A DNA stretch of 4,395 nucleotides from a virus. Its lineage: Duplodnaviria > Heunggongvirae > Uroviricota > Caudoviricetes. Position 1 is the first letter of the stretch. Every line of letters begins with the position of its first letter. The stretch is taken from IMG/VR virus record IMGVR_UViG_2671180631_000010; one strand, given 5' to 3'. Shown here piece by piece: positions 1 to 4,395 of this stretch. The translations under genes and the position numbers were made by a program. The notes beneath the pieces were generated by a model. It made no database searches and was not told where the DNA came from. It saw only the letters and a list, made by a program, of their open reading frames with translations.

Positions 1-79
1 GCTTTGAACTCTTTAGAGTAACGTTGGGTTTTTCTGCTCATTATTAGCTCCTTCTGATGCCATTCTATTTCAGGAAGGA

Positions 80-343
80 GTGTCCGTTAAACTCAGGCTA
101 CCTCAGGTTATTCGCTTCTGGGCATGGGCGGATCAACAAATGATAGACGGTAATGCAGATTGTAACGCTCGCGGCGTTACAAAAAGTGCAATAGATCGCA
201 TCACTTTTATGTCTGGTTTTGCTGATGCGTTAATTCAGGTTGGATGGCTGGTCGAAAATGACGGAGGGCTTTCTCTACCTAACTTTGAACGTCATAACGG
301 AAAAAGCTCTAAAAAAAACGGGCGGTTACAAACGAGCGAGTAA
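80..343 (+). CDS. N-terminal fragment of a prophage replication initiator (putative origin-binding domain); likely one frameshifted gene with 447..782
   Basis: Frame-2 ORF from GTG 80 to TAA 341-343, preceded by purine-rich AGGAAGGAG at 72-80 (overlaps the GTG, so spacing is atypical; in-frame ATG at 140 is an alternative start). Frame has stops at 5-7 and 14-16, so it cannot begin further upstream. Ends inside an A8 run (311-318), after which the coding signal continues in frame 1. Confidence 0.6.
   Translation: MSVKLRLPQVIRFWAWADQQMIDGNADCNARGVTKSAIDRITFMSGFADALIQVGWLVENDGGLSLPNFERHNGKSSKKNGRLQTSE
162..180. repeat. 19-bp iteron-like palindrome GTAACGCTCGCGGCGTTAC (arms GTAACGC/GCGTTAC)
   Basis: Read directly; 16 of 19 positions identical to the second copy at 371-389. 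A GTAACG half-site also occurs at 18-23. Confidence 0.55.
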
Positions 344-370
344 CAAAAATACGCGAACTGAAACGAAAAG

Positions 371-389
371 GTAACGCTGCCAGCGTTAC
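371..389. repeat. 19-bp perfect palindrome GTAACGCTG-C-CAGCGTTAC (iteron-like), with half-sites at 322-330, 340-344 and 405-412
   Basis: Read directly; arms are exact reverse complements. Lies in the acidic-linker coding segment of the initiator next to A-rich tracts. Confidence 0.55.
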
Positions 390-446
390 ACAAACGGATC
401 AAAAAGCGTTACCAGAGGAAGAGGAAGAGGAAGATCTAAATACTGA

Positions 447-782
447 TCTCCCCCTCGCCAAAAACGAGCGTCTAAAAAATTCGAGCCGGAGGCTATTGAG
501 CTGCCCGATTGGTTGCCGGAAACACTCTGGCATGAGTGGGTCCGGTTCAGACAGGCATTGCGAAAACCGATTCGAACGGAGCAGGGCGCTAACGGGGCGA
601 TACGGGAACTGGAAAAATTCCGTCAGCAGGGTTTTACACCTGAGCAGGTGATTCGACACAGCATCGCCAATGAATACCAGGGCCTGTTCGCGCCGAAAGG
701 TGTTCGGCCTGAGACGTTGCTCCGACAGGTTAACACCGTCTCGTTGCCGGACAGTGCGATCCCGCCAGGCTTCAGGGGGTAA
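447..782 (+). CDS. C-terminal fragment of the replication initiator: DnaT-like C-terminal domain
   Basis: Frame 0 is open from 447 (after TGA 444-446) to TAA 780-782; the first canonical start in frame is TTG 513. The product ends ...NTVSLPDSAIPPGFRG, matching the C-terminal motif of E. coli primosomal protein DnaT (...NTVSEPDSQIPPGFRG) as recalled from memory. It sits 6 nt upstream of the DnaC-like gene, mirroring the chromosomal dnaT-dnaC arrangement. Confidence 0.65.
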   Translation, partial: SPPRQKRASKKFEPEAIELPDWLPETLWHEWVRFRQALRKPIRTEQGANGAIRELEKFRQQGFTPEQVIRHSIANEYQGLFAPKGVRPETLLRQVNTVSLPDSAIPPGFRG

Positions 783-788
783 CGGACC

Positions 789-1229
789 ATGAAAAATATT
801 GCGACAGGCGGCGTTCTGGAACGCATCCGCCGACTGACCCCGCCACATGTAACCGCCCCATTCAGAACGGTAGCGGAGTGGCGCGAGTGGCAACTTGCTG
901 AAGGCCAGAAACGTAGCGAGGAGATCAACCGCCTGAATCGCCAGTTGCGGGTGGAAAAAATTCTGAATCGCTCAGGCATCCAGCCGTTGCACCGTAAATG
1001 CTCGTTTGCGAATTACCAGGTGCAGAACGACGGCCAGCGATACGCGTTAAGCCAGGCGAAATCCATCGCCGATGAACTGATGACCGGGTGTACAAATTTT
1101 GCGTTCAGCGGAAAACCTGGTACCGGGAAGAATCACTTAGCGGCAGCTATCGGGAATCGCCTGCTGAAAGACGGTCAGACAGTGATTGTGGTTACCGTGG
1201 CTGATGTTATGAGCGCCCTGCACGCCAGC
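789..1229 (+). CDS. DnaC-like replicative helicase loader (AAA+), 3' end lost in N block
   Basis: ATG 789. The N-terminus and the Walker A region (FSGKPGTGKNHLAAAIG) align with E. coli DnaC as recalled (SGIRPLH..CSF.NY, FSGKPGTGKNHLAAAI, ITVADIMSA). The frame runs into Ns at 1230; the track ORF end at 1343 is a read-through artifact. Walker B and the true stop are not visible. Confidence 0.85.
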
Positions 1230-3133: not shown

Positions 3134-3430
3134 NNNNNNNNNNNNNNNNNNNNNNNNNNNNNNNNNNNNNNNNNNNNNNNNNNNNNNNNNNNNNNNNNNN
3201 NNNNNNNNNNNNNNNNNNNNNNNNNNNNNNNNNNNNNNNNNNNNNNNNNNNNNNNNNNNNNNNNNNNNNNNNNNNNNNNNNNNNNNNNNNNNNNNNNNNN
3301 NNNNNNNNNNNNNNNNNNNNNNNNNNNNNNNNNNNNNNNNNNNNNNNNNNNNNNNNNNNNNNNNNNNNNNNNNNNNNNNNNNNNNNNNNNNNNNNNNNNN
3401 NNNNNNNNNNNNNNNNNNNNNNNNNNNNNN
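3134..3430. other. 297-nt block of undetermined bases (N)
   Basis: Seen directly. Flanked by a promoter-like motif upstream and a stop codon plus terminator downstream. Confidence 1.
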
Positions 3431-3952: not shown

Positions 3953-4306
3953 ATGGCACATATACAACTGGTCAAACAAACCTCTTCCGGATTACTTCTC
4001 CCGGCGACGCCGGAGAGTTGCGATTTTCTGCATCAAATCAAAATAGGTGAGTGGATACACGCAGACTTTAAGCGTGTGTGTAACTACGCATTCCACAAGC
4101 GTTTTTTCAAACTCCTGCAACTGGGTTTCGATTACTGGACTCCGGTCGGTGGGGCGATCACGCCTCGCGAACGAAAACTGGTGTCCGGTTTCGTTGATTA
4201 CCTGTGTGAATCAGTAGGCCGGGAACATACGCCAGCTCTGAGCGAAGCCGCAGAGCAATTGAGGTGTACTGGCAATAGCGGACACTACCATTTGTTCTTT
4301 TTTTAA
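3953..4306 (+). CDS. Hypothetical protein, probably a lambdoid nin-region-type protein of unknown function; possibly truncated at a T7 run
   Basis: ATG 3953 preceded by GGAG at 3942-3945 (the track's TTG 3911 start is less likely). Stop TAA 4304-4306 lies at the end of a T7 run (4298-4304); the adjacent frame stays open to the window end. Confidence 0.6.
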   Translation: MAHIQLVKQTSSGLLLPATPESCDFLHQIKIGEWIHADFKRVCNYAFHKRFFKLLQLGFDYWTPVGGAITPRERKLVSGFVDYLCESVGREHTPALSEAAEQLRCTGNSGHYHLFFF

Positions 4307-4317
4307 GCAGCCATCTG

Positions 4318-4395
4318 ATGATATTTTTCCCTGAAGGCTGCCGGGGAGATATTCCCCAGACGAGAGTGACGACGCTGACGATTGTAGAAAATCTC
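4318..4395 (+). CDS. Partial ORF running off the window end (MIFFPEGCRGDIPQTRVTTL...); either a separate gene or the frameshifted continuation of 3953..4306
   Basis: Frame 1 is open from 4279 to the window end with ATG at 4318; no clear Shine-Dalgarno. Confidence 0.25.
   Translation, partial: MIFFPEGCRGDIPQTRVTTLTIVENL

Follow-up and report, generated by a model that had tools for sequence, protein, structure and literature searches.

A candidate lambda-style replication origin of palindromes, phased half-sites and a purine tract inside a phage initiator gene

Inside a gene homologous to phage replication initiators, the 4,395-nucleotide virus DNA of IMG/VR record IMGVR_UViG_2671180631_000010 (the whole of this stretch is called the window below) carries a cluster of palindromes and half-sites built on GTAACGC-N5-GCGTTAC, followed by an all-purine tract. 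The cluster is probably a lambda-style intragenic origin of replication, recognised by the winged-helix-like N-terminal domain (N-domain) of the initiator and using the purine tract as its melting or loading site. The first-pass annotation of the window, made from the letters alone, had called the cluster a plausible origin, and that proposal was strengthened: the sites are conserved in homologs, their codons are fixed as DNA, their sequence variants change in concert, and the tract is kept independently of the reading frame.

Both of the 19-bp elements described in that annotation, GTAACGCTCGCGGCGTTAC (162-180) and GTAACGCTGCCAGCGTTAC (371-389), lie where it placed them and fit the GTAACGC-N5-GCGTTAC pattern, the latter being a perfect 9+1+9 palindrome; they are referred to as site 1 and site 2 (Table 1). 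Their 8-bp arms had been called identical, which is true of the left arms (8/8) but not of the right arms, which agree at only 7/8 positions. An extra half-site copy at 150-156 had been missed; it reads GTAATGC in the window and GTAACGC in relatives, including phage vB_EcoS-673R7. Among the further half-sites that had been listed, those at 322-329, 340-344 and 405-413 are present, but GTAACG at 18-23 is inside the end of an IS600 element and is unrelated. The interleaving with A-rich DNA was borne out, with a GC content of 0.38-0.40 and an AT skew of up to +0.68 over 280-430 (+0.44 to +0.68 in the stretch at 280-370). The purine tract at 414-434 had been overlooked; ALPEEEEEED is encoded with CCAGAGGAAGAGGAAGAGGAAGA (412-434). 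The cluster had also been assigned as a whole to the segment encoding the linker, a description that fits site 2 and the tract but not the first palindrome, which is in the part encoding the N-domain. Site 1 encodes G-N-A-D-C-N-A-R-G-V-T within an N-domain loop that is modelled with low confidence (pLDDT 56) and tolerates a 4-codon insertion. In Enterobacterales alleles, a 12-bp insertion (four codons, 'NADC/NAKC') duplicates the left half-site of site 1 (window 150-161). The clustering in the window is not a matter of chance: five of the six exact GTAACGC heptamers fall within 162-412, and, if one mismatch or fewer is accepted, there are 21 heptamer matches versus 9.4 ± 2.7 in shuffled sequences, none of 200 shuffles reaching 21.

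A scan of one genome per species yielded 74 homologous loci of 31-98% identity, from Enterobacterales, Pseudomonadales, Burkholderiales, Planctomycetota, Verrucomicrobiota/Akkermansia, Ignavibacteria, Acidobacteriota and others, and the 71 non-redundant loci were used. The first-pass annotation had staked its reading on the repeats being conserved in homologous initiator genes, and the same two gene positions are indeed occupied in most loci, the GTAACGC-N5-GCGTTAC palindrome being found at +148..160 of the gene and again at +335..391. Many Enterobacterales have a third palindrome at -32..-44; in intact relatives, this upstream copy (TGTAACGCTGCGAGCGTTACA) is non-coding and 13-32 bp before the ATG, and it is missing from the window because the IS600 insertion separated it. 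Half-sites at +321 and/or +336 also recur in several of the sampled Enterobacterales loci. Over the 71 loci, half-site density peaks at -100..-1, +100..199 and +300..449; per 50 bp, it is 0.2 just upstream of the gene, 0.7-1.3 at +100..199 and 0.5-1.9 at +300..399, versus a background of ~0.02. About 334 kb of flanking DNA contained only three 19-bp palindromes of the GT[A/C]AC type, all in two divergent loci (L069 and L071). In the complete inducible phage vB_EcoS-673R7 (ON470616, 37.8 kb; initiator gene at 9059-9847), 8 of 12 GTAACGC heptamers are within 440 bp at the initiator gene. Of 58 distinct E. coli-type viral alleles, all have a perfect site 1, and site 2 and the upstream site are each perfect in 56. 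The scan of IMG/VR gave only alleles that were at least 96% identical, with no deep diversity; per-position variability over 80 near-identical IMG/VR alleles was confounded by indels, and presence counts were used instead.

Codon usage within the palindromes was counted in 72 proteins, over 104 sites in all. The pattern xGT AAC GCx xxx xGC GTT ACx is common to the two in-gene sites, and Asn AAC is paired with Val GTT in 91/91 cases, whereas GTT makes up 26% of the Val codons elsewhere in these genes. At seven sites His CAC is paired with Val GTG, which gives the palindrome GTCACGC/GCGTGAC, and at two (both sites of locus L040) Cys TGC is paired with Ala GCA, giving GTTGCGC/GCGCAAC. Although different residues precede Asn (G 62, C 13, S 12, R 5), 84/104 of their codons end in GT; the fifth codon ends in GC in 79/104, and Ser in the sites is nearly always AGC. 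Specificity variants switch jointly in both arms, in both sites and in the lone half-sites of a locus; beyond those already named they include CTAACGC (L057), GTTACGC (L033), GTCCGC (L072 and phage epsilon15), GTCCGG (L077), GTAGACGC (L076) and GTCGTC (L060), and the terminal lone half-site elsewhere carries the variant of its own lineage (GCGTGACC, GCGCAACC or GCGGACC). These codons show that selection acts on the DNA motif and not on the peptide, and the motif co-varies with the initiator subfamily. Because lone half-sites cannot pair, what reads these sites must be a trans-acting factor with sequence specificity, not a hairpin.

The half-sites are arranged convergently and with a phasing of 11-12 bp, about one helical turn; examples are 326> 337> 348> 359> 373< 384< in L043 and 367> 379> 391> 405< 428< in L008. 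The purine tract follows directly after the last half-site as CC(T)AGAGAAGAGAAGAG, also given as CC(T)AGAGAAGAGAAG or ...GTTACC(T)AGAGAAGAGAAGAGAAGAG, and a purine run of at least 12 nt occupies that position in 53/71 loci. It is read in three frames (26/24/3), as ALPEKRREEK, ALPREEKRRE, VTREEKRREE or, in the window allele, ALPEEEEEED. In the meta-profile, GC content falls by 0.12 and purines make up 0.69 of the bases at +400..440. Among E. coli alleles that are otherwise 96-100% identical, tract length ranges over 15-45 nt (mostly 15, 21 or 27, with single alleles of 18, 30, 39 and 45), and the variation alters the length of the poly-Glu run. The epsilon15-type initiators (L160, phage epsilon15 35179-35856; L072) have the linker cluster only and no site in the N-domain; their cluster consists of GTCCGC half-sites in the order > > < < with 11-bp phasing, plus a AGAGAAGAG tract. 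This arrangement suggests that the linker cluster is the minimal core. In Xanthomonas phage CP2 (L162, AB720064.1), the deposited coordinate start of the circular genome is inside the initiator gene (CDS 42178..231).

The N-domain is the only constant companion of the sites and is, thus, the best candidate for their binder. The genes upstream of the initiator are mutually unrelated (methylases, ParB-like, antirepressor and Toprim genes), and the initiator gene itself is found in the 'O' position ahead of a P-, DnaB- or DnaC-type partner gene: lambda P-like in L068, DnaB in L036 and the DnaC/IstB-like ydaV in the window. The protein gave a full-length match to PHROG 2509, 'replication initiation protein' (E=1.2e-89, residues 1-262 versus profile positions 1-277), and a profile search places 2648 clusters (90% identity) in the family, whose C-terminal domains vary (PF17948 DnaT-like, PF09524). 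A Pfam search with the N-domain gave no match at E<=0.1, including to Phage_rep_O, and a sequence comparison of the initiator with the PDB found no relative; the predicted model of the N-domain appears to resemble winged-helix DNA binders. The most conserved peptide is PNF[DE]RHNGxxxKxRA (alignment A3, residues 93-113 of the intact protein), and lineages with GTCACGC sites differ just past it, RKQKQR versus RVxxHR; these residues are possible specificity determinants. A plasmid-type replicon was considered and found no support, as a homolog occurs in only 2/72,556 plasmid records and the sites are convergent half-sites.

In the mechanism that we propose, dimers of the N-terminal domain would bind the GTAACGC-N5-GCGTTAC palindrome, and additional protomers would occupy the flanking half-sites, which their phasing sets on one side of the helix, to build a complex resembling the O-some. 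This complex would destabilise the adjacent purine-rich, lower-GC tract, and the C-terminal domain would recruit the loader, which here is YdaV, together with DnaB of the host. Site 1 and the pre-ATG site, the palindromes that lie ~200 and 400 bp upstream, may be accessory, looping to the core or throttling transcription of the gene.

The resemblance to lambda ori and its O gene is in layout. In both, a dyad-symmetric site array is inside the initiator gene, between the segments encoding the DNA-binding N-domain and the partner-binding C-domain (at about +350..430); a purine-rich, lower-GC tract is directly 3' of the sites; and the next gene encodes a helicase loader or helicase. The lambda record shows four iterons at O +349..433 and then ACAAAAGAAAAAAGAAAAGA, an order and gene position that match those of site 2 and the tract. 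In lambdoid O proteins, too, the N-domain and the origin form an exchangeable specificity cassette, the C-domain being matched to the partner. The two N-domains, in contrast, have no detectable sequence relationship (hhalign probability 0.15%), and, unlike lambda, the half-site and (GAGAA)n tract of the new family are conserved across phyla. Of the features of a lambda-type origin, the repeats within the initiator gene, the tract 3' of them and the partner gene are present, but a set of four tandem iterons is not. Other initiators bind repeats in their own gene, those of Bacillus phage SPP1 (G38P/oriL), P22 (gene 18), N15 (repA) and P1 (repL) among them, but their protein families and repeats differ from those of the present family. 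Iteron plasmid origins (RepA, pi, TrfA) likewise have multiple phased initiator sites beside an easily melted tract, and inverted copies could also serve in autoregulation; the half-sites here, however, are convergent and centred on a palindrome, whereas the plasmid iterons are tandem direct repeats of 17-22 bp.

Several observations weigh against a lambda-style origin. There is one 19-bp palindrome with half-sites phased at 11-12 bp in place of four tandem 18-19-bp iterons spaced ~20-24 bp; the clusters, moreover, are ~200 bp apart, and, unlike in lambda, extra palindromes lie farther upstream, by ~200 and 400 bp, and one of these falls within the coding region of the DNA-binding domain. The tract of the E. 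coli allele, made of GAGGAA repeats, is only moderately AT-rich. A verrucomicrobial subgroup (L046-L051, L054, L059, L063-L065 and L067) has at most single half-sites, without palindromes and without a purine tract. Palindromes and tract seem to have been lost together there, and the origin may have moved or been altered beyond recognition; the protein family can therefore do without the element. The loci share descent, so that their site counts cannot be taken as independent. Finally, the initiator is non-functional in the window itself.

A comparison with the Rac prophage of E. coli K-12 separates the N-domain from the rest of the module. The module (ydaS/T - ydaU - ydaV) and the position within it are the same, and the C-terminal 119 amino acids of K-12 Rac YdaU, the DnaT-like tail, are 85% identical; the N-domain and linker are nonetheless unrelated, K-12 matching DUF1376 (PF07120, E=3e-26) and the window allele not, and hhalign of the N-domain versus DUF1376 gave no match. 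Nucleotide homology to K-12 Rac ydaU begins at AAGATCTAAA (431-440), immediately after the purine tract. The K-12 gene has no GTAACGC but has linker repeats of its own, ATGTTCAAACA, present twice in direct orientation at a distance of 34 bp and once inverted; they are located at 2505-2580 of L003 (about 1421504-1421579 of NC_000913.3), where weaker copies are found too. As the homology starts only after the tract and the repeats differ, the N-domain behaves together with the repeats and the tract as a single exchangeable unit. The ATGTTCAAACA repeats are candidate oriJ iterons for a DUF1376-type initiator. That Rac has an active origin, oriJ, is reported in PMC3945230 and by Potrykus 2000 as cited in PMC11014345. 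No earlier description of the GTAACGC repeats was found in the published literature, the older papers mapping oriJ being outside the reach of the search.

The cluster might instead consist only of autoregulatory operators or transcriptional roadblocks, bound by dimers of the initiator or of another repressor, with the origin elsewhere. Dyad symmetry is typical of the sites of dimeric repressors, the Enterobacterales palindrome before the ATG is beside the ribosome-binding region, and initiators of iteron plasmids autorepress at inverted repeats. However, a promoter scan detected no sigma-70-like promoter around the upstream palindrome, the universal core is in the middle of the gene and is the sole cluster in the epsilon15-type lineage, and an operator needs neither phased arrays nor a frame-independent purine tract. 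We consider operators alone unlikely, although a dual role, operator plus origin, is possible. It is far less probable that the cluster is some other cis site, for packaging (pac), partition or recombination. Clustered repeats inside genes do mark pac sites in some phages, but the present cluster is always inside the initiator gene of a replication module, beside loader or helicase genes, and is swapped as a unit with the initiator N-domain, and no terminase, partition or recombinase gene consistently travels with it. Sites for host transcription factors (CRP, TyrR, LacI-type) were dismissed on the basis of spacing, orientation and conservation across phyla.

Inverted repeats can also act as hairpins in RNA or single-stranded DNA, for instance in mRNA stability, in attenuation or, at site 2, as a terminator on the minus strand. 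A stem of 7-9 bp is possible at each palindrome, the two arms co-vary, and on the minus strand of the intact allele the site 2 palindrome followed by CTTTTCGTTT scores as intrinsic-terminator-like (L001 4265-4283; window 371-389). Nevertheless, the arm sequence itself, and not pairing alone, is kept across sites and phyla; partnerless lone half-sites share that sequence and change specificity when the palindromes do; terminator-like hits are as frequent as shuffles predict (1 versus 0.9); and an Rfam search of the window gave no match. The A-run upstream of the terminator-like site is not kept in other taxa. We thus judge hairpins a very improbable explanation. The least credible is that the repeats have no function at the level of DNA and simply follow from a conserved peptide repeat, N-A-x-S-V-T, and from an acidic or basic linker. 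Sites 1 and 2 do share the encoded pattern x-N-A-x-x-V-T, and charged residues are encoded by the tract; this explanation is nevertheless already contradicted by the codon choices and the frames. A peptide requirement does not account for the fixed GTT, GT-ending and AGC codons, for the His/GTG and Cys/GCA pairs that keep the dyad symmetry, for a tract conserved in three frames or for a palindrome that is non-coding.

An origin read by the N-domain gives this large phage initiator family, for which there is no Pfam model, a concrete candidate origin; family members are found in Rac-like prophages of E. coli/Shigella, Salmonella epsilon15, Xanthomonas CP2, Pseudomonas PAN70, Akkermansia and Planctomycetes. 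As an example of a cis element overprinted on coding sequence, the element is unusually clean: codons of its presumed reader, and even amino acids (Asn/Val, His/Val, Cys/Ala), are set by the binding site, and the purine tract is kept while the reading frame across it changes. Possible uses are the annotation of origins in prophages and metagenomic phage contigs, the design of mini-replicons, the interpretation of degraded prophages, and the prediction of replication compatibility or cross-activation between co-resident prophages that have the same half-site. More speculatively, and with only a small chance of being right as a whole, the invariant (GAGAA)n tract may do more than unwind passively: its coding strand is all purine, so RNA transcribed from the initiator gene would be held there in a purine-RNA:pyrimidine-DNA hybrid of unusual stability, exactly where the initiator-bound array ends. 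Firing would then be primed by an R-loop or transcription and tied to initiator expression, helicase loading of the primosome type would be fed by the DnaT-like C-terminal domains, and a single origin design would serve phages of at least five bacterial phyla. If that were true, the binding site would also dictate residues of its own DNA-binding domain.

In the window, the 'initiator gene' of the first-pass annotation is a homolog of the phage initiator family, but a pseudogene, cut by IS600 at codon 35 and carrying two frameshifts. Intact 263-codon genes (L001 and L002) align from window position 105/106 onward. The pseudogene comprises an N-terminal domain that appears winged-helix-like, a linker of basic and acidic character, and the C-terminal domain that K-12 Rac YdaU also has. 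The +2 frameshift in the A-run leads to a stop at 341-343, and the 87-amino acid ORF at 80-343 is a chimera of IS and gene. The cis elements at 150-434 are intact beside this dead gene. Because the initiator was destroyed, the origin of the window would be a relic unless an initiator of the same specificity is supplied in trans.

Table 1. Positions of the origin-like elements, the initiator pseudogene and neighbouring features in the window
Feature	Position	Strand	Description
IS600 (IS3-family) end	1..105	-	Cuts the initiator gene at codon 35; contains GTAACG 18-23
Phage replication initiator pseudogene	106..782	+	5'-truncated, two frameshifts; PHROG 2509; 'YdaU family' in one RefSeq record
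Site 1	150..180	.	Degenerate half-site GTAATGC 150-156, then palindrome GTAACGC-TCGCG-GCGTTAC 162-180
A-rich, low-GC stretch	280..370	+	Encodes the basic linker KSSKKRAVTNERVTKIRELKRK
A8 run	311..318	+	A6 in intact relatives, giving a +2 frameshift (alignment, ORF list)
Auxiliary half-sites	322..344	.	GCGGTTAC 322-329; GTAAC 340-344
Site 2 core palindrome	371..389	.	GTAACGCTG-C-CAGCGTTAC
Terminal lone half-site	406..413	.	GCGTTACC, abuts the purine tract; AGCGTTACC at 405-413
All-purine tract, 21 nt	414..434	+	AGAGGAAGAGGAAGAGGAAGA, encodes EEEEEED; candidate DNA-unwinding or helicase-entry element
10-bp deletion junction (near 449)	441..460	+	Between TCCCCCT direct repeats; second frameshift
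ydaV	789..1229	+	DnaC/IstB-like ATPase, helicase-loader partner gene; enters masked Ns at 1230
Right IS600 end	4260-4395		Matching region from about 4250 annotated 'IS3-like element IS600 family transposase'

The window is the replication module belonging to an E. coli/Shigella prophage of the lambdoid, Rac-like kind. E. coli chromosomes are 98-99% identical to window 105-1229 by megablast, and their annotation there is 'hypothetical protein / phage replication initiator YdaU family protein', then ydaV. The ydaV product matched PF01695 IstB_IS21 (E=1.7e-7) and is called 'ATP-binding protein' in relatives. Positions 1-108 are 100% identical to a multicopy 'transposase' element present in 3060 E. 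coli genomes, and the minus strand of this left IS600 end reads MSRKTQRYSKEFKA. Two copies of IS600, an element typical of Shigella genomes, thus bracket the window in the same orientation, the right one truncating a DUF1367-like gene. Downstream of ydaV are a DUF977 gene, a hypothetical gene, QueH, two masked N blocks and DUF1367. The epoxyqueuosine reductase gene QueH (2288-2974) is cargo in the early-right region of the prophage, and in relatives it is followed by hokD, the equivalent part of the window (3134-3430) being masked with Ns.

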